NCBI GenBank assembly: GCA_008632985.1
Contig: QPGO01000025.1
Span: 434,001-498,000 of the forward strand
Length of the DNA stretch: 64,000 nucleotides
Origin: Psammoneis japonica
Lineage: Eukaryota
Reading direction: 5' to 3'
The translations under genes and the position numbers were made by a program. Positions within the stretch are counted from its first letter, which is position 1, and each line of letters starts with the position of its first letter. Of this stretch, positions 1,520 to 57,245 are shown piece after piece. The notes beneath the pieces were generated by a model that saw only the letters and a list, made by a program, of their open reading frames with translations, ran no database searches and was not told the origin of the DNA.

Positions 1520-2710
1520 GATGATGTCAAAGACACAGAGGACAATGAAGCAATTGGTGTTGCATGTTTTGAAGAGGACTCCTTTAGCAACTGGGCACTC
1601 TCAAGCTCTCACGTGCAGCTTCCATTCCTGTGACCATTGAGTGAACGAGGACATGTGTGAAGAAAGAAGCTGTTGATGTGATGTTTTGTGGTGGCTGCTG
1701 TTGTCACTCAACAATTGTCTCTTCTTGAAACCTCATGACACATTTGTGCTTTGGGTGGACCTTTGTTGTTGAGTTCATTGTTCTGTTGATGCAGTCTCTT
1801 CAATTGTGCACAAAATGACCTCACACAGCCAAGTTTGAAGTTGTTCTTGCCAAATGCAGACAGAAGGAGCTCAGCATCAAGCTGCTGCATTTGCAATTGT
1901 TGCAGAGCCCAGCAAGTGAGCAAAGAGCCTCTTGACAAGCCAGCTCCAACTCATGAAGTTTGCGCAGCCAAACTTTTTGGTTTTCGGTCTGGCCCTTTTT
2001 CTTGCTTTTTGCTCTCTGAGAGGTGCTGTTTCAAAAAGCACCCAAAACCTGTCATGGCTTTGTGTTGGGCAGCACTGCAAATCCCTTGTTCTCTGTCTTG
2101 TGGCACCCAGTGTTTTCATTGTGCCCACAGCTTCGAACACCAGCATGTTCTCATCTCTTGTCTGGTGCTCTTCTGCAATCATCTTTCTGTTCCTCCACTG
2201 CTGCAAACAAAGCTGTCACAAGACCGCAACAATTGGAAGCATTCCAGATGGCCAGCAAGACTGCTGCAATGGCCAGAGCTGCAGCCATGCAGGGAAAACA
2301 GGAGGATGGCACCACAGCTTCCAGGAGCCACCGCCCCCAAGAAGAGATGTGCACAATCAAAAAGACTTGGTGCGCCACTCATTGGATTGTGAGACAAATG
2401 TGAACTTTGTGACTTGTGCCTCTGTTGTTTGTGGGAAACTCTGAGTTCTGTGCAGGTGAGTCCACCATTGAGCTGAGTTGGCGAACGAAGTCGTGGCCAC
2501 AATGCACCGGGCCCTGCCATGGATTGCAGTGGGTCCTGGGTGGGACACGAAGTGCAGTGCTGCCCAATGTTGGGTCAAGGAGATTGTTTGAATGTCAAAT
2601 TAGTTGTTGCTCTTGTTGCTTGTTACAGCAGCACATGTCATTTGCCGGGGTGTCCCTGGATGGAATGAAGTCCAGATGGGAACACAAGTGCTTTTTGGAA
2701 GTGCGGCTGT
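1520..2710. other. Hypermutated CpG- and TpA-depleted island, possibly a decayed minus-strand gene
   Basis: Abrupt switch to TG/CA-rich sequence with few CG and almost no TA; ORFs here nearly lack Tyr and are rich in C/H/Q/W; boundaries approximate. Confidence 0.75.
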
Positions 2711-17408: not shown

Positions 17409-17784
17409 ACTCGGGTACTTGAGGTTCCTTACAACAATGAGAAGCCTCGCATCATCGTCGCAAGTGCCGGCTTTCGAGTTTTTGTTGTGAATTTTGACGA
17501 TTTTGTCGGGCTGTGATGCCGAAAAGGCGGGCGCGCAGTCAATCACGTTTGGTCCCGCGCCGCGCGGGCACGCGACGCGCGAACCTTGTGTGGAGTTCGG
17601 TCAGTCCTCCCATCCATCCTTGATTACGCTTATTCCAAAGATATCATATTATCTGTTCAATGTCTAAATAGAAATTACTGTATTGAATAACAAAAAAAAA
17701 GCGGCAACTAACATCGCTGCTGCTGCTCTGCATGCAACCCAAGTCATGTCATTGTCGACCTTATTGCTGTTTCAGTTGCACATC

Positions 17785-20700
17785 ATGTGGGGCCAATTTG
17801 CTGGCCGCCTCAAGGAAAATGCAGGGGAAATATTGAATGCGGTGGCTCCACCTGGCAGTGATGAGGAGTATTATACGGAAGAGGAAGAATACGAAGAGTA
17901 TGAAGACGAGGAGTATACCGATGAGGAGGAAGAGGAGCAAGATGAAAAGACTGGATTCGGTGCCTTGCTAGAACGCTTTGTGGCTCAAGAGGAAGAACAG
18001 TATGAAGAAGTAGCGGAATCAGATCAGAAAGCAGACGAGACTTCGGCTGATGCAGCCGTGGATGAAACCACCGCGAAATTGGAAATACCGTCGCCAAGTC
18101 TAAAAAATACCACAGAAAACAACAATGCCATGGTTGAACCGTCACCGAAAAGACCGCCGCCACCACCACCTCCGCGACGAAGGCCACCACCACCCCCGCC
18201 TCCTCCAAAACCGGCAAGGGAAGATTCTTCTGACTTTGAGCAAGTTAGCTTACACGACGATGACTCGCAGGATGCTGCTGCCAAACGAATGCGAGATGAG
18301 GCAGCCAAACAAAAAGAGCTCATTGCAAAACGAGAAGCGGAGGAAACGCGACGTCGCGAAAAGGAAATTGCTAAGCGACAACAAGAAGAAGAGGAGGAGA
18401 AGCGACGTCAACAGGAAGAGATTGCAAAACGCGAAAAGGAACGATTAGCAGAGATTGCAAGGAAGGAGGAAGAGCAACGTCAGAAAAAAGCGGAAGAGGA
18501 AGAGATGCGACGTCGGCAAGCAGAAATTGCTAGGCTAGAAGAAGAAGAACGCCAGCGAAAAGAAGAGAAAAGACGTCAGTTAGAAAAAGAGAGAGCTAGA
18601 AAGGAGGAGGAAGAACGTCGTCGATTAGATGCGGTCGAGAGAGCTAGAAAGGAGGAAAAAGAACTGCTGGAGCGAGAAGCAGAGATTGCTAGACAGAAGG
18701 AAGAAGAGCAGCGTCAGCGAGAAGCAGAGATTGCGAGACAGAAGGAAGAAAGACAGCGACAAGAAGAGATTGCGAGACAGAAGGAAGAGAAGCGACTCGC
18801 AGAGACTGCCAGGCAACAGGAAGAAAAGAGGCGGGAGGCAGAATTAGCAAAGAAGAGGGAGGAAGAGAAGCGACTCGCAGAGATTGCCAGGCAACAGGAA
18901 GAAGAGAGGCGAGAGGCGGAAGTAGTAAAACAACGGGAAGAAGAGAAACGGCTCGCAGAGGTAGCTAGAAAACAGGAAGAAGAGAGGCGAGAGGCGGAAT
19001 TAGCAAAACAACGGGAGGAAGAGAAAAGGCTCGCAGAGGCAGCTAGAAAACTGGAAGAAGAGAGGCGGGAGGCAGAATTAGCAGAACAGCGGGAGGAAGA
19101 GAAACGGCTCGCAGAGGTTGCTAGAAAAGACGAAGAAAAGAGGCGAGAGGCGGAATTGGTTATGCAACGGGAGGCAGAACTTGCAAGGCAAAGGGAGGAA
19201 GAAGCCGAGCGTCAAAAGGAGGCAGAGATGGCTAGGCAGCGGGAAGAAGAAGCCAGACGTCTTAGGGACGCCGAGAAGGCAAAAGAGCGCGAAGCCGAGA
19301 TTGCCGCGCAAAGGCAAGCGGAAGTTGTATTAATAAGACAACAAGAGGAAGAGAAACAAAAAGCAAAGCAACTGGAGGAGGAAGAGCGAATGAGACAGCA
19401 AGAGGTGGCCATGAAAGAAAAACACGAAGCTGAGAAAAAGATGCGAGAATCGGAGGCGGCGAGGAAACATCAGGAACAAAGACAAAAGGCGGAAGCATCA
19501 ACAAAGGATGAAGACGTATTGCTTGTAAATGGCGGTTCGCCGCGTAATGATTCCGTAGCAAATGCACAGGATGGATTGGTGAGAAGTCTGCGCGAACAAG
19601 TCCGACAGATGGAACTAGAAAAGGAAAGCATGTCGCAGCTGCAAGGAAAGAACAAAGAGTTGGACCGTCAACTACAAGACGTTAGACAGCATTTATTGCG
19701 TGCAGAGAATCACATAGTGGAACTGCAACAAAATGCTGCCCAGTCTATGGACGAGGAAGAGGAGTGGCGACAGTCGCTCCTGGCGAAACAACAAGAACAC
19801 GAAGCTTTGCTGATTCAATCACAGGATGAAAAGATCGAACTGGAAGAAACCTGTCAGTCTCAGAGGGAAGCCTATGCTGCATTAGAGAGGGAATACGAGA
19901 AGGCGAGATTCAATTCAACCCAACAAATTGAAGAGATGCGTCATCTTTTGCAAGAAGCTGAAGCTCGGTTAAAATCTGCCGAAGCGGAAAAACGAGATGC
20001 TCTATCGAGGAAAGACGCAGCCTCCAAGCAGGCCCAACAACGGCAAGAGCGGTCGGTTCAAATGGCGGAAGATAAGTTGGCCAGTACTATGGCTCTCTTG
20101 GATGAACGAGATGACGAGATACATAATCTCAAGTCTGTCATTGACAATATGAGAGCCACGATATCAAGGAATGCTGAGGGTGCTGAAGAAGCGGAGGAGG
20201 AAATGGACGAGTTGCATGCCGAAAACGAAGCTCTTCTACACAAAATTCAGGTCATGGAAGAAGAGAGATTGGAAATGCAGAGACAAGTTGCAGATTTAGC
20301 TGCTGATCACGATAAAGTGAGCGGTCTTCAGGTACGTGGTTGGGGGTGTAAAGAACTTGAATAATCGTCGTTGTAGCACTCCTCACATGTAATGGCACTG
20401 CGCTGCTGCACAGATGGAGCTGCATATGCTGATGGAGGAACGTGATCGAGATAGGGCTCAGAAACAGTCAGCTGTAGAGTCAGCGGAAAGCAGTAAGTCA
20501 AAAACGGCAGCGGAACGCGACGCAGCCCTGGCAAAAGTTAAGGATCTCGAACAGCAGCTAACAGCAGTAATGGCGGACTTGAGTGTGGCGCAGTCTGATA
20601 CAGAACGCGTCATGACTGCCAACAGTAACCTCCAGAACGCACTTGAGGCTTTTCAGAGCGAACGTGAGGCTGAGATGGGAATTCTCGAAGAGCAGCGTGT

Positions 20701-41860: not shown

Positions 41861-42379
41861 TTCTCCCTCTCTCTCCTTGATTTAGCTTCAACAAATCAGA
41901 AATAATGGGAAGAAGCGTGTAGCTTGTCTGCATTTTTTCGCTGGCGAGTTTCGATAAAATGTGACCGATGAAACGTGATCCGCGGCTCCTCGCTCGTCGG
42001 ACACGATCGTGTCAGATCTTAATCTTCACCCCTGAATATATCGATGATGTCATATTCTAAAAGAACCTGAATAATAAGTATACGTTACAGAGGACAACTA
42101 CTGTACAGTAAGTAAGTATCACACTTAGTCATCGGTGCTTGTGAGCGCGCGCTACGAGATAGATAGAAGGTCGCTCGGTCTATCTAGAGTCTATCATCAA
42201 TCAGGGCCCAAGGCCTAAGCATAGGCACTCTAGATCGACGATACTGATGGCCAACAAACAGGAAATAGAAAAGAGGAACTTACCGGTACTTCCAGGGGGT
42301 CGCTAACCTCTATCGATACACCTTTTACTACTTTGACACCAGACTACAAACCCAAGAGCAGCACCAAAGCTCGCACGCG

Positions 42380-43734
42380 TTACTTTTCCGCCACCTTGTC
42401 GACCTGTAGCACATATGCTCCTTGGACGTTTCCTCCTTTCAGATCGCGAAGAGCTTTATTTGCATGGTCAAGGTCGTACAGGGTTACTTTTGGTTTGAGA
42501 GGGATCTCAGCCGCCACCTTGAGCAGCTCTCGGAGGTCTTTGCCAGTGACATTCGCAACAGTCTTAATTTCCTTCTCCATCCAAAGGTGCTTTGCGTAGT
42601 CCATCCCAGAAAGCAAAGAAGCATCTTTGCTTTCCTTCCTAATAGCATTTATCACGAGCCTCCCCCCTGGCTTCAGTACCTCCATCGCTGAAAGTATAGG
42701 TCCCCAAGCTGGCGTAGTATCAATTATCGCGTCCAACATCTCGGGTGGCTTGTCGTCGGTGTTGCCAGCCCATACAGCTCCAAGTTCTCTAGCAAACTCT
42801 CTGGTTTTTTCACTGCGTGCAAAGACATAAATATCACTGTCTGGGTACAGGTGCTTGCAAAGCTGAAGGACAATGTGGCCAGAGCCACCAAAACCAGTCA
42901 AGCCTAGGCGCTGCCCATTTCTTAGGTTCGTAAGCATGAGAGCGCGGTATCCGACACCTCCGGCACACAAAAGAGGTGCAGCTTCTTCATCTGTAAAGAC
43001 TTCAGGAATCTGATGGAGCAATACCTATTAGAATGATTTGATTCTGCCGACGTAGGCAACCGTTGCAAAAAAAAAACTACATACCTTATGAGCGTAGCGC
43101 TCCCCGACCCTGAACGAAACGAAAAGAACGAAAAAGGGGCAATGGAAAGGTTGAGCGAGTCTTGTTTGTGACGGATGCCTATGGATCAGCCTTGCAGAAG
43201 GCTTTCCACGATGCAGCTGCAGAACAAAAGGGCTACTCACACCATATATTGACTGTATCCTCCATCAACGTCGCGACCAGTGGCTCGATAAAGGGGAGAA
43301 AGATTCTCCGTTTCTGTTCCATCAGAATCAAAGATCCACCCTACTCCAACCCGATCACCGACTTCTAGCTCGGTTACCTCTTCACCAATTGCAGCTACGC
43401 GTCCAATAACTTCATGTCCAGGAACGACCGGAAGGGAAGGAGGTGCCGTGCGACCTTCGATTTCATCCAGCTCTGTGTGACAAACACCACAAACAGACAC
43501 TTTGACTAGTACTTGATGCTTCAGAGGGACGGGGATTGGCATTCTGGTTGCTACGAGAGGTCCGTGATTGGGGTCCTCAGACGGAGCAATCGGACCGATC
43601 TTTGTAAGCGCCATTGCCCGCATTGTGCCACTTGAATCCGCCATTTCTGAAAAGCCAGAGACACTTGCTACAAGCTGACCGTACAATGCAATCAAGAGGA
43701 GAAGGCAGGTGATTTGAGCGGTTTGATACACCAT
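42380..43734 (-). CDS. Zinc-dependent MDR alcohol dehydrogenase (AdhP-like) with an N-terminal presequence; 25-nt micro-exon at 43085-43109
   Basis: VCGVCHTELD, VVPGHEVIGRV, GDRVGVGW, DGGYSQY, AAPLLCAG, GLTGFGGSGH; introns 43110-43240 and 43010-43084 give an in-frame join. Confidence 0.9.
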
Positions 43735-44991
43735 GAGCAGCTCTACTGTAGGATACAGTAGCGGTTGTGTGATCGGTGATGAAGAAAACAAAAAATCCGA
43801 ACACGACCACAACGAGTCTGACCGCCTCTCGTCGACATTTTCTTGTCTTTCAACTTCAGCCAAATGACAATGTAGTGCCGGCCCCCCACAGCTTTGACGA
43901 GAGCTCGATGTTGCTTCAGACACTTTGGTTGTGCATGATGCCCATGCTCTCTTTAACGTCATCAATTACAAAAGTGCGAGGCAGTTTCGTGAAACATTGC
44001 TTGCAAGGAAACATTGTTGGTTGGACTTTTCAACATCACTCTGGCTGGCCGAGGGTTTTGCAAATGTGCCAGAAGACCGAAGCTTGCTTGGGAGGACACA
44101 GTGTCTCACTGTGCAGGAGTGTGTCCATTTTCTAGAATGTTGGAAGGCAAGGACATGCATCCAACAAGTCCAATCAGCTCTGATCTGCAGGCTGTAGAAC
44201 AGGTGCCAGAGAGGACACAAAAACAGGCGGAAGAGACAAAAGAGCCCCGCACAGTGTCATCTCTGAAAAATGTCTCCCTGTGAAATCTGCCAGAAGTGCA
44301 CACTGCAAATTGGTGCAACTTGCAGAATTGTCACAAAGAACAGCTGGGCCTGTTTGACAAAAGTCATTAACCAAGTTCCACTCAGCAGCAGGAGCAAGCA
44401 TCTGGTGTGTGCAACATCCTTTCAAAGGCCGGCCAAGCAGCACACCAAACATTGGGGGGAGGGGCGATGCACAAACTGGTGGCAGCAGCAGGGACTCCAC
44501 CACTTGACTGCACAAAACTCTTCATTGACAGTGTTGACATGAGAAAAGATGCCAGTCGTTTGCTCTCCTGCATCATCTTTTGTGTTGGGTGACACGCATG
44601 AGTGTCATTTCCAGCCCTCTTCTTCAAAAGAAGAGAAAGAGCCTCTTGCTTCTGCTGCACAGAACAAAAAGAAATGGGTGGCTGTGGGCTGCATTGAGAG
44701 TCCACCCCAGATGCTGGTTTTTGTTCAAGTGTCATCCAATCAAAGGTTGTCACAGCAGCAGAGAGGGGTGCATGTTGGGCCAATGAGCGATGGTGCCAGA
44801 GGTGGTGGTGACAGGGCCAAGTTGTGCTTGAGAGCAACGTGCTGTTGTCTGATTGTGGGGAGCTTTGAGGTTGCTGGAGGCCCTCTCATGTTGTGCAAAC
44901 AGTGCAAAGATTTGGCACCTCATGGTTTGGTGGGAGTGAACTGTTGGCACTTGTGGTGGCCTCGTGTCCAAGAATCATTGACAAAGTGTGT

Positions 44992-45016
44992 CGCAGCAGC
45001 AGCAGCAGCAGCAGCA
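44992..45016 (+). repeat. (GCA)n microsatellite
   Basis: gcagcagcagcagcagcagcagca. Confidence 0.85.
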
Positions 45017-47449
45017 TGAGTGTCGGGGGTGTCTTTGACATGTTGGAGTTGATGCTGGCACCCACACAATGAGTTTGATGGTTGAAGAAAAGCAAAAAGA
45101 GGCACAGTCAGTTTCCAGCTGCTCTCAAACTGCGCCCATGTTGTGTGGCTGGCAGACTCCCATTTTTTGTTGATTTGCCAGAGCCTTTGGGCAAAGAAAG
45201 AGGCAGTGGAGTTGAAAACTGCATTGCATGAGCTGCTGTTGCAGCAACAAACTCTTGGCTTTAAAAAAATGCTTTTCCCAGCTGTCCATCCAAAGCTGGC
45301 ATTGTGTTGTGCACTTGTTGGCATCTTTGAGCCAAGCCTGCATTTCAATTGATGGCGCTGATCTGAAAAGCAACTTCTTAGAGTGAGCATCTGGGAGTGG
45401 AGCCACACCATTGGTCTGCTGCACCTGTCAGCTTCAGATGGTTGCTTTTGCATTCAGCCATTGCCCTGGTGTCATTTGGGCCAGAACTTGCACTGCTGGT
45501 TTGTGCACTGGGCTCCTGACAACCAAGTGGGTGGTTTCTTTCCTCAGCTTGCAAATCACCATAGTTTTTTGCTGATCACGGCTGCCATGTTTGTTGGCTC
45601 TGTTCTGACATGTGTTGTTTGCCATTGACGAATGCACACAAATGCAAGGGAGTGGGAGAAAGGGATGCTTTGGGACACATTTGGGTTGGGGACACTCCAA
45701 AGCTGCCGGGTTCCTTGGTGTGAGATGACATTGTTCTTGCAACTGCCATGCACATGTCCCCAGCAGTGTTGGATCCAGAGTGGAGAGCAAGCACATCACA
45801 GATTGCAACTTGGGAGAGAGCACCAAAACTCCAGAACAAAGTGTCAAAGGCGAAGTGATTTGCAGCAAAGTTCTCCCTGCATCTTTGGCTGGTGGCAAAT
45901 GTCCCCACACCATGGCTTTGCTGGTGACACACTGTTGCCATCACAAATTTGCTCGCAGGTCACAACATGGCAAAAGCAATGGTTGAGAATCCAATTGCAT
46001 GTTGCTCACAGGGGCAACTGCCATCCATTGGATCAACGACAACAGAGTGCAATTAAGCAGGATTGTTGCATGAATTTCTCAATTGCAAAGGATTTCCCTT
46101 TGCACCACTGTTTGCTGCTCTTTAGAGCTGCTGCAGTGAAATGCACCAAACTGTCAACAATTCATGTGTGGCTCAAGCATTGCTTCAATCTTTTTGCTGC
46201 AAAACCAGTCACAAACAAGATTTTGTGAGCTCCAAAGTTGTCGAAGAATTTGCGCATCCTCAATGCAAAAGCCACTCTCATGCAAAATCTGAACAGAGCA
46301 AGGAAATTGGATCAGCAAGACACAACATTGGGCTGTTGTCATCTTTGCAGAACAGCAATGAAGTTCTCTTTGACTGTCATTGCCGTCCTCTCTGGTGTTG
46401 TTGTTGCTTTGACCCACAATGATCCTCTTGCCACCATTTCCATCTTGACCTTTCTTGCATTGAAAGCAACCTCAAAATGAAGCAAAGATGAAGAAGTGGA
46501 CACAATTCAAGATGTTTTTGCCACCCCAACTAAAGAGAATCTAGCAATTGTCATGCATGAGAGCTCCACCTGCACATCACAAGAGGCACGTCTCAGAGGC
46601 TGCATCAAGGAACTCATTCATCTTGCTTCAAAACCCCAGGTCAAGCAGATTCACCAGTGTCCAATTGCTTCCAATTCCAAACTCGCCCAAGCCCTTGGCA
46701 AAGTCCATCACTCATGCTCCAACCTCCATTTGTTTGGGATTGAGTTCAAATCCTTTGCAACCAGTGTGAGCCAAATCAAGTCTTTCATCACCAAAGCCCT
46801 CAAATGCTTCTGCATGACCTCCACCAAGCTGAACATCTGTGGAAAGCTTCTGCCAAAGCTTGACAACACAAGTTCCAGTCCCTTGCTTTCAGCTGTGGCA
46901 ACATTTGAGTTCCTGCTTTCAGACTTTTCAAGGCTGGGGAATGTGTCAATGCCCCCAGTGCATGTCAAAGCATCTGCAACTTTTGACGGTTGATGCCGGC
47001 ATTCTATTTTGTCAACTGTGATTGTTCAACGCATGGAAAATGCACCCCTTGTGGGACAAAACTGCAACATTGACCATTTCTGTCCAGCCCTTCCACTGCT
47101 TGTGACACCCCTGTGCCATCTGGCACCCCGTGGTGAACCAAATGTTGGAGAGCCCCTGAGCCCCAGCACCATCAAGTGCCTCATGGCGAAGAAGATTTAG
47201 ACAACTTGGTTGGATGTTTTGGACAAATGGAAAATTCATCCCAAGCAAAGCAAGACAAGGAAGCCATTGACTGGCTGACTGACCTTTTTAAATGCGTGCA
47301 AATTGCAACTGTGACTGACAAAAATGACTGCTGTGCCAGCATGGCAGTTTCACCTCCAATTGAAACAGCTCAAGTGGTGATGCATCCTGAGCCCACAGCT
47401 TGAGCTTCAACACCCTCTGAGACTGACTCCAGATGAACCAAGCACTGCT

Positions 47450-49420
47450 TTCTCAGAATGATGTGGGCACCACCTGCATTCACGCTTCACAGCTTCCTCA
47501 AAAACTCCATTGGAAATGAGTGACAAGGCTCTTGTCATGAAACAGCCCACCAAGCTTGTCATTTCCTCAAAAATTGCAAACCTCATGGCTGTCCTCACTT
47601 TCCAGTGCAGAGCTGAAGAACCCAACTGAAGAGCCCAACCCCTTGTGATAAAAGTTTGGACAAACACCACACCAAACAAAATGCTGTGTGGCCAACATCA
47701 AAGTCAGCAGGCTCCTCTCCATCAACAATCTGAGAACATCACCCAAACCTGGGCCAAAGTCAGTTGCTTGGATGTGTTGTTGCCTTCAAATTAGCCAGTG
47801 TGACATGACCACAAGCAGCTCCAATTGCAATGAGCAATTCACAATTGTGTGTTGCAACACAAGAACCATTCCTTGTTCCAACAGAGTCATTGTCATCATG
47901 ACTGATGACAGGAGACAACACAACCATGGGTGGAGTTGAGTCCAATTGCTGTTTGCTGAGTCACATGGGAGCAACAATCCAGCTCAAGCAGCAGCTGGTG
48001 GCAACTTGTCTGGCAACTCACAGTTGTTTGGGAGAGAATGGCAATGTTTCATTCCAAACCAAACACCACTTGCCCAACCTGTTTCTTCTTCTTCTTCTTC
48101 TTCTTGCCTCTTGTTCAACTGGGATTTGGCAACTCTTTGGATTCATCATTCACTGACAGTTGAGCAGAGCCACAGTTTGGAGCAACATGTGATGACCTGT
48201 TGTCATTCAGCACATGACAAGAGACAATGCCACATGTTGTTTGGTGATTGAACAGTTTCTTCTTCTAGATCTTCTCCTTTTTTAACAGCCTCATTCAGGA
48301 ATGTGACATGGGCAGAAAGGCTCCACAACTTGACCATTCCATCATTTCCACCCACAGAGATCCAAGCCGAGTTGCACCCCCTGGTGAAAGGATGCAACCG
48401 CCCAGAATGATTTCATGCTCTTTGTCCACAAAAACCACCCATGTGATTTCCTGAGTGCAAACTCCATGTGTGTGCTGTCCCATCCTCCCCAACCAAGATG
48501 ACTGCAACTTGAGTCATGCAGCAGTCCCACATTTGGGTGGCATGGCCCCATCCAGCCCACATCAACTTGTTGTTGTTGTTGTTCTCCATTTGTTTTAAGC
48601 CACACTGTTCAACTGCCTGAGGAGGTGGAAGCTGTGCACGTTCTGCACTGAGCCACTTTAACAGAGTGAACAATGCCTTTGTGACCATTCAAAATGTGAT
48701 TGACTCCTTTGCACTGGACAGGAGGATTGGCTTCATTGTTGGCAGCCGCTGTTTCTTCCACGCTGCTGGTGGTCCACAGGAGCATCTTGTTTTCAACCGT
48801 CCCAGTTCTGCCATTGTGTGAGCAAATCTTTTGCAATGGACTGATGGAGTGACATGGAGCATGTGATGCATCTCTTGGAGCAGACTGTTCTGTTGACAGA
48901 TGCAATTTTGCAGCAGTCCTCTTGATTTTCAATCCAGAACGTGTGAGCCACATGTTGTGTGCCATGGCAACAACCATTGTCAAGCCTTTGTTTCCACTGT
49001 TGCCATGAAGATTTCTGTCCCAAATCCAAAAACAGCATGTGTGGACTGGAGTGAATCATCTGGTTGAACAAGATGCAAAGGAGCAAACCTCTGCTTGTTT
49101 TCAGTGCTCACTGCCATTCAAACAAATGCCAGTTGCTGCCCCCCCAACACAAACATTGCATCATTGCTGGATCACAATTCATCTTCATCCCCAAATCCAA
49201 TGCCCTGAACAGCCCCTCCATTGTGAAAAGCTCTGCATGAAGCTGCTGGATCCTTCTCACAAAGGGAACAGCACGGCAGGTGGGAGGCTTGTGCAGCAAG
49301 CAAAAGTGTGCTCTTGCTCTGTTGGCCCACCCACGATGGACTGCTTTTCAAGAAAATGGCAATTGGTGATGGCGACTTTGACTCACCCATGGCTTTCTTT
49401 AGAACTGGCAACAGTGGTGA
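47450..49420 (-). pseudogene. Decayed WD40 gene resembling WDR6/Trm734
   Basis: Ordered motif relics across frames: RAFHNGGAVQGI, VVAMAHN, RCITCSM, GTVENKMLLW, LNGHKGIVHSVK, ASTSSGS*TVWL, GWGHATQMWD, VILVGEDGTAHTWSL, VGGNDGMVKLWSL. Confidence 0.65.
48083..48105 (+). repeat. (TTC)n microsatellite
   Basis: ttcttcttcttcttcttcttctt. Confidence 0.8.
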
Positions 49421-52400
49421 TCGTGAAGAGAGGATTTTTTTTTTGCCTCAGTTCATCATTGTCACTTGTTGCTCATTGTCTGCTTTTTTGGTTTTGGTGG
49501 AACAAATGGGGCGATGGCCTGTTCCATGATGTTTGCAATGACATGCGTGCCAAAAATTCATTGTGCATTTTTCGCACACAAACATCCATCTGCAAAGCAT
49601 GATGATGTTGAATGTGTGTCAATCATGTCAAAAATTGCCAAAAGAATGAACCCAACTTCACATCAACATGATGCTGAGTTGCAGTGGATGTTGCTTCCTC
49701 CAAGGTGACCCTCCTTCCAACTGTTGGGCAGTTTCCTTCCTGCAAACTGTTTGAACACACATGCACTTGTGCAAGAGCAGAGTGGCAGCTGCCAGCCTTG
49801 TTGTGTTCTTGCCAGTTCTCAACAAAGAGAAAAAGCCACAAGCAGCTGCTCCAAACAACTCTCTCAATTTTGTGAAGATGCAAAATGAGCCCACTGCCTT
49901 GTCAGCCTGGCCATGGAGATGACTCTGACCATGGCCATTGCATGGATGAGCATTGCTCAAACACCACATTGTCAGATGCAGCAAGGTCATTGATTGTGAA
50001 GAAAGCATTCAAGGCAGTTGCCTGCCTGCAGCTTCCCCCAAAAAGTCTCATGCCTCATCTGTTGCCAAATGAGAAGAAGAGGACAGCAATGGCAAAGGGG
50101 AGGAAAAGCTTTTTCTCATGCAGAGCCCAAGCCAGAAATTGGGTGGTGGCCATTTTGATGACAAGTGCTCTTGGTCTAAACTCTGTGGCACATTTGACAA
50201 TGAGAAAAGCAGCAACAAGAACAACAAGACAAAAAATCCCCAGATCCACATGACATTGAAGGTGGCAGTGATGCCAATGAGGTCATCGTTGTGGAAGAAA
50301 AAGACTCAGAGTGCACAGCAGAGTCAAAAATTCAGGTCAATGCCTTGATGATGAGCTCTCTCTTCCCAACTTGCCCAAGTCTGTGCACCATTTCCTGGTC
50401 TCAACGATTCATCCAAAGCCAATGACAAGGGTTGTGGTGCTTCCAAATCACCTTGTCCATGCAACACAGGTGACAGTGAAGACATTTCTTTGATCTTCTC
50501 AAGCATCAGCCAGTCCTGGCAGTGCTGCATCAGCCACTGAGGCTCCAGGTTTGCTGGGGCAGGGAGAGGCATCATTCACATCACAGGACAAAACTCCACT
50601 GGCACCTTCAGGAAGCGCCACAGTGCCAAACTGCTCTCCCCCCTCCTCCAAGGATGGAGGGCTGGTGGCAATTTCACAGCCCACAAGGTCAGATCTGCTT
50701 GTGATGTGTTGCACTTGACAATCTGCCAAAGCCAACTTGGCTGGACTAAAAGCTTTTTTGTGCTGCTGCACATTTCTTTCTGCACAAGTTCATTGCAGGC
50801 CTCAGCTCAGTCCTTTTGATCTTGATCCAGGTGCAGCTGCATGCTGGCTTGGTTGACATTGCTGGTGGCAGAAGATGCAGGCTCAAAATTGGCAGCTGAC
50901 ACCAGACTTTCTCCCAAGGCATGCACCAGCATGGTCAGCATCTTCTTGCAGTTCACCCCAGCTGCCTCTTGCTTTGACATCACCCCAATTGACAGGAGAA
51001 ACAGGATGAGGATGAGGCACACCTTCTCTGGTGACAGCGCTGCCACTTTGTTGTCATGCGGTGGCTGCAGCAGTGCTGGCCAACAAAGAGTCCATTTTGG
51101 AAGAATGAGCTGAGCCAGGGGGTGAATGCTCACATTTGCCCAATGCTTGTGGCACCTCCTCAACAACCTGGCAGGGCAGGCATGCTGAAACATGGATGCA
51201 AGAGCAGAGGCAGCCTGTCAATGCACTGAACATCATCCACTGGAGCACTCAGGTGCACATCTCAGAGCAATCACAAAGACAACACTGCCCATTGAAGCTT
51301 GGTGCCTGGCCATCACGACATGCAGAACTTTGGAGCAGGAGCTCTGTGAAAAACCAGCTCTGCAACAATGCCTCCAAGCCCCTGTTTCTCATCTGAGCTT
51401 GTGCAGAACATTCAAAGTCATGATGAGATGAGAGGATCCAATCAATCACAAAGGCAGCAGCAATGTCCAGCAACAGCTCCTTCCATGGAAACTGTGCAAA
51501 CAGTCTTGCTTTGTTTGCAATTGTTTTAAATCAGAGCATGGCTGTGGCCAGCCTTGTTCATCATCTTGTCCACACCTTTTTGCATCTCCCACTGTCCCCC
51601 TCACATCTGACAGAAAACAGGGAACTTGAAATGGGGCCAAAGTTTGTGCATGTGGGTGGTGGATTGCCCACCTTTTGGGGGGTCAATCTGATCAACTGGA
51701 CAAACTTTTGCCATGCCATCAACATCACAGTTTCAAAACTTGCAAGCAGCATTAGAGCACATCCACTGTGTGGCAGCTTGCAGCACCCATTTTGAAAAAT
51801 GTCCCTGTGCAGCACTGAATGCTGCAGAGATCAGTTGTCAGTTCAATGCATGCTGGATTGCACAGAAAAGGTGGCCCAACAGTTGACATTCTTGACAAAC
51901 AAGCATGTGTGTGGGCTCTTGATGTGAGCACATGCTGTGTTGTCATCAGAATGGTGCCATGTGGTTCTTGAGGAATGCACTGGTGTTGTGCTGCTCAAAG
52001 AAGGGCTCACAACTTTTTGCATTTGACAACTCTGCAGGTCTTGGCTTCAATGCCAAAAGGATGCATTGGCTCTTGAGCCCTGTGTGTCAAACATTCTTTG
52101 CACTGCAGTGGTTGTGAGGTGCTGCTCCAGAGCACCTCTGCCAAGGCTGGCATCACAAGCACAAGCAACACCATGGCTGGTGACTCACCCTTTCTCTCTC
52201 CGGGAGGATGCCCAGATGAACAACAAAAGGCTGTGCAAAGTTTTCTGTTGTGGCCAGATTGACAGAAACAGCATGTCCAGGTTGTCATGCTCAGAAAATT
52301 CTGTGTGCATGAACCGGGTGCCAGTTGGGATCCCTGAGAGCAAGACAAGACCCAAATTGCTGCCAGTGTGTTGTCTTGCATTGCCTGAAAAGACAGCAGT

Positions 52401-55057
52401 TAAAATGGCTGGACATCCAGTGAGCTCAATGAGAGCAGCAGTGGTGAGATCTGCAGCCCACCACCATCTGTCTGTTTCAAAATGTCAAAACCATGCAGGG
52501 CTGACAAGGCTTGCTCCTTCTGCACACACCATTGGCAGCTGGTGGCAAAATCACTGATGCCACACCCAATGCCACCTCTTGTTCCAATTTCTTTTTTAAA
52601 ATGCAAAAACAAAATGCAGGCAGCACTCACACTTCATTTCTGAACACTTGGACATTGGATGTGATGCTGCAACTCCTCCACGATGCGGCACAGGTCATCC
52701 AAAAAGTCATCTAAGATGGTGTAGAGCTTGCGCTGTCTGTGAAGGATGGACAATTTTGCCAAGCTGTTTGATGATCAGCAATGTGATGAAATCAGCAGTT
52801 GGGGCAATGCTGGAAAGGAAACAACCCTTGCAGTCCATCCCCTCCTGCTTCTGTGACTCTCCTGTGTGACTCTGCAGGAGAAACAAGTGGTTTTCAAAAG
52901 GGGGGAGGGGGCTGGAGAAACCACAGCATTTCAATGAGAACATGTGACGAACTTGCAATGAAAAAGACTCCCATGAATGACAATGGCTGGCAACAAAGAC
53001 TCTGCCTTGCTGCCTGAGGTTGGAGAAGAGAAGCAGCTCCACATCTCAAGAAGAACTCCTGCAAAGTTTTCAGGAACAAGCCACAGGAATTGCAGCTGCA
53101 GGGCTTTGTCAGAGGCGACAAGAAACATGCTTTGCTGGCTGCTGACATTCTGCATGTTAGCACATCTTTCTTTGTCCATGGAGCACCCCCACACTCAAAC
53201 ACTCTCAAAATCATGATGGTTGCATGGGTGCCCGGCAATGGACAGAAAAGAAGTTGGAACAAGTGTGGCGATTTGGCCAGAGATTGTTGATGTGGGGCAT
53301 CACTGAACTGTTTCACCTCAGTTTCCAGTTCAGTTGTAAGATGCAAAAAGAGACAAGAGCAGCAAATCTCACAGCAAACCTTGTGCTTTGTGAGTGCTTG
53401 AGTTGGACTCTTTGATTGCATGAGGTGGCCCAGATGCTTGGCACAGCAATGAAGTTGATGATCATTCACCCCTGGTGTGGTTGCACTGTCAGATCAACAA
53501 CAGTGTGACACCCAAAGAGGCAGATCTTTGCAACACTGCAAATGCAGCAGTGGCAGGTGGCAAACTCTTTGACTCAGCCATTGTCAGGTCAAAAGATGAA
53601 CACATGGTCATTTGGCATTTTCTCACCAATCATCAACATCAACCATGTGTGCACCAGCCACAAGGACAGATTGGAGATTTGCTTGCCAGAAGACAAGGCT
53701 CTAAGCTTCCAAAACCTGCTCACACCACCTCAACAGTTGAAAGGAAATTGCAGTTCACAATGCATGTGTGCTGTTTGGCAATGTGCTGAAGGAGACAGCC
53801 AGAACAGCACCAGAACAGCACACCTGTTTTGTTTTGAGAATGTGCTGATGACTGCCTCTGACAGCAAACAAAGTGCAAGTGCATGCCAGCCAGAAATGGA
53901 GCTGTGATGAATGACCCAAGTGGAAGTTTCAAGAGCTCTGTTTTCTGCTTCTTTTACGTGAGACATGCTTCTTGCCTTTGTCAGAATGAGATTTCACTGC
54001 AGAAACAGAAATGCATTTTGTGTCAGAGTTCAGAGCATTGTGCTGCCTCACAAGGGTTGCTGGCACAAGCACTGTGATGAGTCATGAGCGAACTGTCAGC
54101 ATGAAAAGAGCCAGCTGCTGGCGGCAGTGGGAGTTCACAATTTAGCTGATGTGCCAGCCAGAAGTGGGGTTGCAGTGAATGATGGCAAGTCAAAGCTTCT
54201 GGAACTCCATCATCCACTCCTTTTGTGTGAGATGTGTTTTTGTCCTCCTTGGAAGGCGAGAGTGCTGTCAGTGAATGACATTCAAAAGAAAAAGTGACAA
54301 CAAGTGTGCAAGAATTTTTTTGATGCCAAGGCACACTCGCTCACCCACACTCTTGTTCTCCTCAGATTCCTTCATGGAATCCCTCCTCCAATGATTGCAG
54401 GCTTCCTCAATTTCTCTGTTGAGTCAGGTTACTCTGATGGTCGAATTTGGCTTCGAAGTTGATGTGTTGAGTTCAGAGTGGATGCAAGAACAGGTGAGGG
54501 GGGCGAGACAACTACTTCCACTCTAACAGCAAATGTTCCCAATTCGCATTTGTCCGATCGATTTATCTGCACATCCAGACTGAATCGAAGGCAAGAGAGA
54601 CTCAATGGGTGAGTGCCACATTTGCAGTTTGTGGTGACATTGTTCTTTGGCAGACGGCAGCCACACCGAAAAGCAGTGCATTGTGAAAGACAGAGCAAAC
54701 AGCTGATCATGATGATCTTCCGCATGGACGCCTTCTGTCACTTTGTTCTTCGTTGGAGCGAGCACAAGGAACACAAGCATCGCCATTAAAGGAACCAATT
54801 CGAAAGTTGTCGCACACCCGGAATCACCTGGCCTGTAGCTAGAGGGCCGTAACTAGAGAATCGAGAAGTTGCATTATTGTTTCGCTTGGCTTTGCTCGAG
54901 GTCTTTCAGCCGCGCCGCATTTACTGTACCCGTATGACCACAGCGTAGGCAGCCACTATAATCCAACCGCAAGATGGAGCTCTCGAAGTTGCTAAGTAAA
55001 GTTTTGACATACGTTGCACCTAGCTAGCATGCTAACCATCACTAAAATGTTACGTAG

Positions 55058-56629
55058 TCATTCTGTAGCTGGACTTACAAAAAAGAGTGCCGCGGTCAAG
55101 TATGCACCAGCTGGGTAGGCAGCTGGACTTTGAGTGTGGCATGAAGCTGCTCCATTGATTTTCAATAGCGTAATACATCTTCCTGCTGACACAGCTGCTT
55201 GCTGCACCATATTTAAAAAATACTGACCGCCGTCCTTCTGTGTCATGGCTGCCGAGCACGAGCAGGATAGAAGCAACCCGCCCTTTTCGGCCGATATGAG
55301 ATGAATGGCGTCTCTATTCAATGCGTGATATTTTCTTGAAGCACGGTCCAGACCAGAGGCAGACGGAGCGAGTTTCGGCGGATCCAAAATAACAACATCC
55401 CACTCCTTTCCTTGCGACCGAGCTGATTTCATAAAAGGCGAAATATCGCTTTGCACAAACTCAATCTTGTCTTTATCGCAAGCGTTGAATTTTGCGTTGC
55501 CTCTGCAAGCATCAATAGCGTCTTGAGATGAATCGACACCAGTCACGTGCGCTGCTTTCCCGTGAATCAACGCATTCAAGGCAAACCCACCGTGATACGA
55601 GCACAAATCCAAAACTCGCTTCCCTTGACACAGTGGTGCGAGATTCCGTCTATTCTCGCGCTGATCACAATAAACGCCTGTCTTCTGGCCCTTTTGATAC
55701 GGCAACGAGATGTACTGTATGCTAGACTCTGTCGTCACGACTATTTTTTCAGTGTCATAATCCGTATCCTCGTCAACATTCATGTCAAGTTTATATCCGT
55801 CTTGTTTCAGACGAGCCGGTGTAGTCTTCCAGATAATATTGATTTCAGTGCCTTCATAACTCGGGTGCCGACTTAGAACATCGCAAAGTACATCATGAAT
55901 AACATCTTTGTAAATCTCACACCACGACGCCGACGACATTACAACTGCAACTTTCCCACCCAGGATATCCACAGCGAGTCCAGACAGTCCGTCACCCTCC
56001 CCATTAACAAGTCGATACGTATCGGTTTCTTGTGACGGCAACGACAATGCCAATCGTGATTGGACAGCAGCACCCAGCTTTGTCGATAGAATAGTGCAAA
56101 GTGCTTCTGTCTCTTCTTTGCATTGCTTTACTTGATCAGCTAGAGACGGATTTATCGATGCATGACACAGCATTCGAACTCTGTACATGGAATTAGGATT
56201 GTAAACCCCCCACCCAATAAATTGTGTTGGACCGTCTGGTGGAGTATCAAAATGTGGATATGTCTCGCTCTTGCTCCGTCGCTTCTCCTTATTTTGTTGA
56301 ACTGCAACCCCAACTAAATTCCCCATTTCGATCTTTTTCTTTCCTGACGAAAACGCAATGGCTCCTGGAAAGATGAGCGGATTGCCATCTCGAAAGGATC
56401 TAGACTGTCTATTTCGTTTCACAACAACTATAGGAAATGAATACTCTTTCTTTGCAGCAGCCGATGAATGTAGACGAGAAAGGCGTAACAGCAGAGGTGT
56501 CGCTGGGCGCTGAATTGTGACGAAACCTCTGCACGCCACAAGCGACATGGACACGATTGTCAACGAAGGGAGAAAGCAAGAAATGATGGATCGAATCATT
56601 GACAACGTCAAGTTACTTCTCCCTCTCAT
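55058..56629 (-). CDS. RlmI-like SAM-dependent rRNA methyltransferase, probably organelle-targeted; start uncertain
   Basis: YRLVNGEGDGLSGLAVD, GQKTGVYCDQRENR, VLDLCSYHGGFAL, DVVILDPPK, SCSCS; hydrophobic N-terminus followed by ACRG-FVT. Confidence 0.88.
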   Translation of the reverse strand: MRGRSNLTLSMIRSIISCFLPSLTIVSMSLVACRGFVTIQRPATPLLLRLSRLHSSAAAKKEYSFPIVVVKRNRQSRSFRDGNPLIFPGAIAFSSGKKKIEMGNLVGVAVQQNKEKRRSKSETYPHFDTPPDGPTQFIGWGVYNPNSMYRVRMLCHASINPSLADQVKQCKEETEALCTILSTKLGAAVQSRLALSLPSQETDTYRLVNGEGDGLSGLAVDILGGKVAVVMSSASWCEIYKDVIHDVLCDVLSRHPSYEGTEINIIWKTTPARLKQDGYKLDMNVDEDTDYDTEKIVVTTESSIQYISLPYQKGQKTGVYCDQRENRRNLAPLCQGKRVLDLCSYHGGFALNALIHGKAAHVTGVDSSQDAIDACRGNAKFNACDKDKIEFVQSDISPFMKSARSQGKEWDVVILDPPKLAPSASGLDRASRKYHALNRDAIHLISAEKGGLLLSCSCSAAMTQKDGGQYFLNMVQQAAVSAGRCITLLKINGAASCHTQSPAAYPAGAYLTAALFFVSPATE

Positions 56630-57245
56630 GCTGAAAGCTGGAAGAGCCTTTGATGGATGAGACGAACGACGAAAACGACAAGATCCAAGATCCATCACAA
56701 GTCGTGATAATCAATATGCTGATATTCATGGTTTATTATTCCTGAGTGATTGCTGACGAAAACTTCAAGAAAGTTGCTAGTAAATGCGTTGAGAAACGTT
56801 CCTAATGCGTTTACAATACTGGAATAACTTTCTTAAAATCTGTACATCACATTGGACCTAATTTGGTTTGCATTTTAAAAAAATGTCTATCGACCTCTAA
56901 TGGTCATATAAGTATATTTTTGCGTAAACATATTATAACCTCTAATGTAAATACTTCATATTATCTCTCTGTTTATAAAATGACAAACTAATCATATGTT
57001 CTAAAGATCGTATATGGCATAACAATTTTTGGTGTTTTCCCGCCCAACGGCTCCGCAATCACAAAATTTTCGCAAGATTCACATTATCACGAAGAACCCA
57101 ACGCTATCGTGTGAGAAAGCAAAGAGAGGTGCAAATTTCGTCACTGTTGTGCGTTTTATCATCCTATTGATAACGTACAAGATTCAAGGCATAACAACAG
57201 GTGAACAAAAAGTGTCGTGTTATAAAGCAAAGAGAGGTGCCAACC

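Follow-up and report, generated by a model that had tools for sequence, protein, structure and literature searches.

Flank-dependent loss of TpA steps from a gene-free island in the genome of the diatom Psammoneis japonica

A 64,000-nt stretch of the Psammoneis japonica genome (assembly GCA_008632985.1, contig QPGO01000025.1, positions 434,001-498,000 of the forward strand), hereafter called the window and used for all coordinates, contains a gene-free island of 10.4 kb in which the dinucleotides TA and CG are almost absent. The loss of TA follows a clear rule of the flanking base: TA standing before C or T was lost about six times faster than TA standing before A or G. Our reading of the island, to which we give a probability of about 0.55 as a whole, is that gene-free and partly repeat-derived DNA was rewritten in place by two transition processes, one decaying CpG and one acting on TpA under this flank rule, the latter being the work of a putative DNA adenine deaminase.

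Loss of TA and CG and the flank rule

As a reference for the island rates, the 50.1 kb of outside DNA of the same window, which is mostly coding, was used to stand in for the ancestor. Calculated per kilobase, the ratio of observed to expected TA was 0.01-0.07 in the island vs approximately 0.4-0.9 outside, and that of CG was 0.05-0.19 vs approximately 0.7-1.3, while the ratios of TG and CA in the island reached 1.6-2.2. In absolute numbers, only 33 TpA were counted where about 409 were expected from the flanking DNA, along with 67 CpG. The density of TA was thus 3.2 per kb in the island vs 39.1 outside (0.08 of the outside value, a deficit of 36.0/kb), and that of CG 6.4 vs 57.3 (0.11, with approximately 89% lost, a deficit of 50.9/kb). 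TG amounted to 112.8 per kb vs 71.4 outside (1.58-fold, a surplus of 41.4/kb) and CA to 115.7 vs 66.4 (1.74-fold, a surplus of 49.3/kb). The base composition was unchanged, AA, AT and TT all stayed within 0.93-1.08 of their outside frequency (AA 1.08), and GA was at 0.79. A preliminary description of this DNA had dealt with the loss of TA and had left the loss of CpG from the same block out of its account.

The 33 surviving TA were distributed very unevenly over their flanks: TTAA (10), TTAG (8), CTAA (5), CTAG (3), GTAG (2), and one each of ATAA, ATAG, GTAA, CTAT and TTAC, with no RTAY at all (R, purine; Y, pyrimidine). The YTAR class therefore made up 26 of the 33 survivors vs 345 of 1961 TA outside (17.6%; Fisher p=5.8e-14), and 132 of 724 in outside DNA free of open reading frames (ORFs) (18.2%; Fisher p=4.0e-13 against the island). 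As YTAR is the rarest class outside, in coding and in ORF-free DNA alike, its enrichment in the island is not a property of the genome. It was seen in each third of the island (10 of 13, 8 of 9 and 8 of 11 survivors). This confirms the observation of the preliminary description that the remaining TpA is found almost only in YTAR. All eleven YTAR positions and the four exceptions named there were correct within 1 base, and the list of exceptions was short of three (44195 GTAG, 52722 GTAG and 53337 GTAA).

When survival was expressed relative to the flanking expectation, 26 of 71.9 YTAR were left (0.36), 7 of 214.4 YTAY and RTAR (0.03), and none of 122.3 RTAY. The same was evident from the trinucleotide ratios between island and outside, which were 0.01 for TAC, 0.01 for TAT, 0.02 for ATA and 0.02 for GTA, vs 0.19 for TAA, 0.16 for TAG, 0.22 for TTA and 0.10 for CTA. 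The counts of all NTAN tetramers inside and outside were further analysed with a rate model, in which the mutation rate of the A on each strand depends on the base that follows it and a TA is lost as soon as either strand has been mutated. A model with two rates (TAR 0.50, TAY 3.01) clearly surpassed a model with a single rate (likelihood-ratio chi2 = 64.6, p=9e-16), by which a flank-independent loss of TA is rejected. The ratio of the TAY to the TAR rate was 6.0, with a profile confidence interval (CI) of 3.8-10.2. The fitted numbers of survivors (26.3, 6.4 and 0.3 for YTAR, YTAY+RTAR and RTAY) were close to those observed (26, 7 and 0). Both the survivor classes and the rate model thus bear out the earlier proposal of a flank-selective loss rather than a compositional drift.

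Allowing four rates gave, in hits per site over the history of the island, 3.10 for TAT, 2.96 for TAC, 0.81 for TAG and 0.25 for TAA. This model reproduced all 16 tetramers (deviance 7.8 with 12 degrees of freedom) and was not significantly better than the two-rate model (p=0.13). Several features of the rule can be derived from these fits and from the counts. YTAR survives because it offers the slow context on both strands, TTAA being the most resistant tetramer. Since approximately 64% of YTAR was also lost, TAY is preferred without being the exclusive target; the earlier designation of TAY as the defining target holds in its roughly six-fold preference and not in its exclusiveness. TAT was lost as fast as TAC, which indicates a preference for a pyrimidine and not for C. 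A G at position +2 is not required, as only five TAY followed by A, C or T were left vs 349 expected when both strands were counted.

The base at +2 of the surviving YTAR, i.e. 3' of TAR, was A in 32 of 52 half-sites vs 34% outside (p=0.001). Additional protection by a purine-rich 3' flank (TARA) is one possible reason; another is that these sites are former junctions of T-tracts and A-tracts.

Applied to CG, the same per-strand model gave no dependence on the flanks (p=0.2 and 0.24). The decay of CpG is therefore probably a separate process.

Products of the loss and support from reads

The fate of the lost dinucleotides was addressed by a mass balance. TA and CG together lost 86.9 steps per kb (83.4-90.3) and TG and CA together gained 90.7 per kb (84.3-97.3), the difference being +3.8 (-2.7 to 10.3) by block bootstrap. 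The gain matches the loss. Provided that the flanking DNA represents the ancestor fairly, practically every TA and CG that disappeared has become TG or CA, by transitions only. TG and CA were distributed homogeneously over 500-bp bins (chi2 = 27.2, 20 degrees of freedom, p=0.13), and both strands were affected evenly. This homogeneity speaks against strand-coordinated mutation tracts at the 500-bp scale, which were considered and rejected.

Survivors alone cannot separate a change of TAY to TGY from a change of TAY to CAY, but products can. Two classes of products were defined for this purpose. Class I comprises changes of the A located 5' of a pyrimidine (YTAY to YTGY and RTAR to RCAR), and class II changes of the T located 5' of the A-pyrimidine (YTAY to YCAY and RTAR to RTGR). 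In these asymmetric flank classes, 19.9 TA and 27.0 CG were lost per kb. The gain was 33.0/kb (28.1-38.2) for class I (YTGY and RCAR) and 17.2/kb (11.5-22.2) for class II (YCAY and RTGR), a difference of 15.9/kb (8.1-24.4). With an even split of CG, a difference of about +14/kb is predicted by the survivor model, 0 by a flank-blind process, and about -14/kb by class II changes. Class I accounted for 777 of 1302 products in the main island (0.597), in agreement with the fraction predicted for TAY to TGY (0.592, p=0.76) and different from those predicted for a flank-blind process (0.534, p=6e-6) and for the opposite orientation (0.476, p=2e-18).

A second, small island at the beginning of the window (Table 1) served as a replicate. 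TA was absent from it between 1586 and 2600; the three TA inside its limits were TTAG, TTAG and TTAC, and 13 CG were left. Class I products were again in excess of class II products, 97 vs 51 (97 of 148, 0.655), so that both the flank-blind (p=0.004) and the class II prediction (p=1.5e-5) were rejected. The product test assumes an ancestor resembling the flanks and a strand-symmetric decay of CpG. Under these assumptions, the orientation TAY to TGY, equivalent to RTA to RCA, is supported with good confidence. It is the orientation advanced in the preliminary description, whose survivor evidence could not decide the matter by itself.

Support from sequencing reads was investigated using assembled contigs of a read set named X1 (Logan). 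Three contigs of 4.2, 1.2 and 11.7 kb were placed on 43213-47381, 47383-48579 and 48554-57000 with 24, 6 and 23 differences, respectively, giving 53 differences in approximately 13.8 kb (about 99.5% identity). Their mean word depth was 57-67, equal to that of the flanking genes. The TA- and CG-free sequence is thus carried by the X1 contigs across the island at a gene-like depth, which demonstrates that the reads contain it. X1 probably stems from the very sample that was assembled and has an unrecorded library type; it is therefore not an independent check. Contigs of a second read set, X2, left most bins of the island uncovered, which counts as evidence neither way. Two simple repeats inside the island, a (CAG)n run at 44990-45015 and a (CTT)n run at 48081-48105, were both skipped as repeats when the read contigs were placed.

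Of the differences between window and contigs, 40 were listed and 244 were not. Among the 40, 38 fell in the island, which constitutes 67% of the covered stretch (p=6e-5), a hint that the process may act de novo. In 23 of these 38, a CpG is affected on at least one side, window or contig; the differences are mostly exchanges between CpG and TpG or CpA in both directions. Three single-site differences among those listed in the island, together with a paired exchange between CA and TG at 43995-43996, touch a possible TA site. The paired exchange is located at the left edge of the island, where the window reads CA and the contig TG. A single ancestral TA or CG gives rise to either CA or TG by transition, so that this site was resolved independently in two alleles or lineages.

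Proposed mechanism, rival explanations and known systems

Two processes are proposed to have shaped the island. One would be a decay of CpG to TpG or CpA without flank preference, most simply by deamination of methylated CpG. The other would be a TpA-specific hypermutation which can strike either strand, leaves TpG or CpA and depends in its rate on the nucleotide that follows the A in 3' direction. RTAY, with the fast context on both strands, would then have disappeared, YTAY and RTAR, fast on one strand, would be approximately 97% gone, and YTAR, slow on both, approximately 64% gone. Under the assumptions of the product test, the mutated base would be the A of T-A-Y, which pairs with the T of R-T-A on the other strand. 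The agent may be a locally targeted DNA adenine deaminase, converting A to inosine that is read as G, by analogy with the one proposed for the chlorarachniophyte Bigelowiella natans.

A number of points weigh against this reading. We know of no characterised enzyme with a T-A-Y profile. A change of A to G at T-A-Y is here indistinguishable from a change of T to C at R-T-A. In every survival and product figure, flanking and mostly coding DNA replaces the absent ancestor. A joint fit of TA and CG over 16 contexts was not identifiable: the share of TA (alpha) was 0.98 with a CI of -0.04 to 1.86, the shares of TA and CG were correlated at -0.97, and 19% of the bootstraps gave a TA share of at most 0.5. 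The orientation consequently leans on the flank-independent survival of CG, which bounds a strand bias of CG to TG to approximately 0.45-0.55. At 45563, the window has ATAG and a read contig ATGG, which is a class II product. Finally, a purine at +1 is favoured by the polynucleotide adenine deaminases known so far, according to the comparison available in PMC4817773, which is the reverse of the preference in the island.

The equivalence of the two base changes is the ground for an explanation with the same flank rule and a thymine chemistry. An oxygenase of the TET/JBP type, or another enzyme, would mark the T in 5'-R-T-A-3' of silenced repeats, and a modified T such as 5-hydroxymethyluracil (5hmU) or 5-formyluracil would mispair with G and lead to T to C. 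A change of R-T-A to R-C-A being the same base-pair change, survivors and products fit it equally well. In dinoflagellates, which belong to the supergroup of stramenopiles, alveolates and rhizarians (SAR), a TET/JBP homologue is described to make 5hmU and to mark and silence transposons, and older work cited there has thymine replaced preferentially in TA and TC (PMC11572971). Such an enzyme would also bring the 5-methylpyrimidine-purine steps, T-A and 5-methylcytosine-G, under one enzyme kind. However, 5hmU pairs with A, no transition of T to C arising from 5hmU was found in the literature, where the consulted part of PMC11804724 speaks of breaks and not of transitions, and the flank rule for TA with none for CG argues against one recognition step. 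Taken together, we regard a thymine chemistry as unlikely. The fact that CG and TA disappeared together, from two blocks whose edges coincide for both dinucleotides, would also be accounted for without a dedicated editor, if deamination of methyl-CpG produced T:G mismatches and their error-prone long-patch repair by a Pol eta-like polymerase mutated the A:T pairs nearby; changes at CpG are indeed more frequent than any other kind of difference between window and contigs (23 of the 38 listed in the island). Pol eta is characterised by WA to WG hotspots (W, A or T), as in antibody hypermutation. Against this stand the mass balance, since half of the TA loss occurring as transversions would have given about -18/kb in place of the observed +3.8 (-2.7 to 10.3), and AA, the other WA step, which was not depleted (1.08 of outside). 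In B. natans, 230 of 231 events are reported as transitions at TpA (10.64898/2026.01.13.699255). Mutagenesis at WA of the Pol eta type was consequently rejected, the mass balance excluding a large share of transversions, and a repair origin as a whole appears improbable.

The pattern of survivors could also have arisen otherwise than by different rates of loss. The surviving YTAR could be newly made, the ancestor could have been rich in TTAA and TTAG, or the sites could have been kept by selection or by a bound protein. No ancestor of the island is at hand, and the A-rich +2 position of YTAR (32 of 52 vs 34%) could mean an origin from A- or T-tracts or a wider protected motif. Yet new TA arising from the NTGN and NCAN of the island itself would be YTAR in only approximately 22-24%, YTAR is the rarest class outside (17.6% overall, 18.2% in ORF-free DNA), and the island offers no ORF, domain or repeat structure on which selection could act. 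Moreover, the asymmetry of the products, obtained without use of the survivors, is about as large as the rate model predicts. This makes an explanation without differing loss rates very improbable. Some long-read base callers make systematic miscalls at modified motifs, and TA and CG might accordingly still be present in the cellular DNA with modified bases being misread. The X1 contigs, although probably from the sample of the assembly, reproduce the TA- and CG-free sequence with 53 differences in approximately 13.8 kb, and the differences listed are mostly exchanges between CpG and TpG or CpA in both directions, so that such an artefact is hardly credible.

The reading of an adenine-directed hypermutation has its closest parallel in B. 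natans. Mettrop et al. (bioRxiv 10.64898/2026.01.13.699255) observed 302 mutations in mutation-accumulation lines of this alga, 231 of them within two integrated regions of viral origin. According to the same report, 230 of these 231 were A to G or T to C, all at TpA, and its authors proposed an ADAT-like DNA adenine deaminase (10.64898/2026.01.13.699255). Both cases display changes at TpA only, to TpG or CpA on either strand, in delimited non-host or silent DNA, leaving a footprint of low TpA and high CpA and TpG. For the island, the restriction of A:T changes to TpA transitions was obtained from the dinucleotide balance rather than from a site-by-site count. B. natans differs in being a rhizarian in which the mutations were watched as they arose and in which integrated giant-virus and virophage DNA was the target, whereas only the end state is seen here, in a diatom and in DNA with no recognisable coding content. 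The words flank, context, trinucleotide, CpG and diatom have no occurrence in the main text of that report (10.64898/2026.01.13.699255).

Repeat-induced point mutation (RIP), known from Neurospora and other ascomycetes, likewise hypermutates repeated or foreign DNA locally by transitions, leaves a dinucleotide signature and stops sharply next to intact genes. RIP is described to convert CpA to TpA by C to T changes and hence to raise TpA (PMC2621366). In the island, TpA was at 0.08 of outside and CpA and TpG at 1.74- and 1.58-fold, which is the opposite direction at the other base pair. Fungal RIP was therefore rejected.

Bacterial TadA has been reported to read U-A-C-G with a strict G at +2 (PMC10586758, PMC11472039), and its evolved variant TadA8e to show almost no context preference (PMC10586758). 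The likeness to TadA, which had been pointed out in the preliminary description, consists in the deamination of an A with T or U at -1 and a pyrimidine (C) at +1, and evolved TadA acts on DNA. A T at -1 was indeed found in the island, TA alone being lost among the NA steps (AA 1.08, CA 1.74 and GA 0.79 of outside). At +1, T was as good as C (TAT 3.10, TAC 2.96), and no G was needed at +2 (five left vs 349 expected with a base other than G), leaving a weak analogy. For the mRNA editing by fungal TAD2/TAD3, U at -1 in 86% (Fusarium), an order of A~G>U>C at +1, and UAG and UAA as favoured triplets are given in PMC4817773, where an ADAR preference of G>C~A>U at +1 is also cited; a preference of ADARs for G at +1 is stated in PMC11156358 as well. 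As far as these sources describe them, ADAR and fungal ADAT2/3 resemble the island process in a preference for U at -1 of the A converted to inosine, and differ from it in their purine at +1 and their RNA substrate, whereas the island protects TAG (0.81) and TAA (0.25) relative to TAC (2.96) and TAT (3.10).

The decay of methyl-CpG resembles the CG half of the pattern only: CpG was changed to TpG or CpA on both strands, the change is confined to the silent block (CG 0.11 of outside), and it is still polymorphic. Diatom transposons are reported to be cytosine-methylated by DNMT5a (PMC9998398) and, by analogy, the CpG loss in the island would most simply be driven by methylation. The 5hmU of dinoflagellates is comparable as a thymine-directed mark, enriched at TA and at repeats in a related supergroup; it differs as an epigenetic mark for which neither a mutator role nor a flank rule similar to R-T-A is described in the part of PMC11572971 consulted. 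No report of TpA loss in diatoms was found in the literature searched, where the apparent matches PMC9258296 and PMC4504042 proved irrelevant. In 80 metagenome loci (687 kb, mostly genic) around relatives of the myosin encoded in the window, a single marginal TA-poor segment of 500 bp was found, which says little. This segment (locus L076, 3701-4200) has a ratio of observed to expected below 0.2 for TA and above 1.4 for TG/CA, and may be due to chance.

The one description of TpA-specific hypermutation found, from an unrelated alga (2026), comes without an enzyme, and its main text has neither a flank rule nor a diatom case. It is tentatively proposed, with more doubt than confidence, that diatoms and chlorarachniophytes share an ancient and locally targeted DNA-editing defence whose enzyme reads 5'-T-A-Y-3' (or R-T-A), unlike the characterised adenine deaminases. 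If this were true, the flank rule would serve as a fingerprint for recognising the enzyme, from which a natural DNA adenine editor might be obtained. The rule consists of TAY being affected approximately six times as much as TAR, in the order TAT ~ TAC > TAG > TAA and with +2 free, and it points to a footprint left by a sequence-reading chemistry rather than by drift. It argues against a specificity of the ADAR or fungal ADAT type, can be matched in vitro to candidate deaminases or T-modifying enzymes, and offers a simple test of whether the processes of the diatom and of Bigelowiella are the same. A natural enzyme converting A:T to G:C in double-stranded genomic DNA at a short motif would be of interest to base editing.

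Nature of the island and neighbouring features

From the positions of all TA and CG, the left edge of the main island was placed at about 43990 (within approximately 100 bp) and the right edge at about 54340-54430 (within approximately 100-400 bp). Both islands are sharply delimited and lie beside genes with normal TA and CG content. The features are compiled in Table 1.

Table 1. Coordinates of the islands, the repeated island pieces and the adjoining genes in the window
Feature	Position	Strand	Remarks
Main TA- and CG-erased island	43990..54430	.	limits set by TA/CG density
Second, small TA- and CG-erased island	1520..2640	.	limits ~1440-2700
Island part repeated in other contigs of the same read set	48311..49006	.	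~83% identity
Shorter repeated island pieces	44702-44814; 46437-46619; 48159-48299		matches to other read-set contigs
Last ORF of the ordinary gene left of the main island	43237..43965	-	normal TA and CG content
Ordinary gene right of the main island	55058..56698	-	PUA-like and SAM methyltransferase domains; normal TA and CG

The origin of the island DNA was investigated by domain and repeat searches. No Pfam domain was detected in the 45 ORFs of at least 90 aa of the island, apart from one sub-threshold GYF match (E=0.009), and the six read-through frames of the island gave nothing at E<=0.1. Neither a long terminal repeat nor a terminal inverted repeat of the island was found, the repeat search of the window returning short pairs at chance level only, and no second copy (paralogue) of the island was detected in the 64-kb window by blastn. 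Approximately 1.1 kb of the island had matches of 80-90% identity in further contigs of the read set, and the unmatched ends of these contigs contain CG and TA. The island, at least in part, therefore belongs to a repeat of which less mutated copies exist elsewhere. With TAA and TAG erased, only TGA is left as a stop codon. Both strands consequently contain numerous spurious ORFs with lengths of 150-200 aa (44382-53469), at a risk of mis-annotation; blocks of this kind also mask transposon homology.

The gene content of the window comprises proteins with DENN, superfamily 1 (SF1) helicase with WW, globin-FAD reductase, myosin head with IQ, EMP70 and LRR domains. The closest named relatives of the myosin are from diatoms, namely Fragilaria crotonensis (53% identity), a record of Ditylum brightwellii and a CCRYP_ record, which we take to be Cyclotella cryptica. 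Environmental relatives reach up to 69% identity.

In the minus-strand gene left of the main island, X2 contigs skip 75 and 131 bases at 43009-43085 and 43108-43240, with CT..AC ends. These correspond to GT..AG introns on the minus strand, and X2 thus resembles a set of transcripts, without being registered as RNA. The spliced X2 contigs cover 42068-43715. The gene on the right, with Methyltrans_SAM and Cons_hypoth95 matches, adjoins the island directly, and a link between the two is without evidence. Elsewhere in the window, an ORF at 17683-20364 on the plus strand encodes 893 aa with no Pfam match. The product is a coiled-coil protein rich in Glu, Arg and Lys, with approximately 20 tandem units of about 23 residues and a poly-proline tract. 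The purine skew of the region at 18-20 kb, which is extreme with an AT skew of 0.6, is explained by this ORF.

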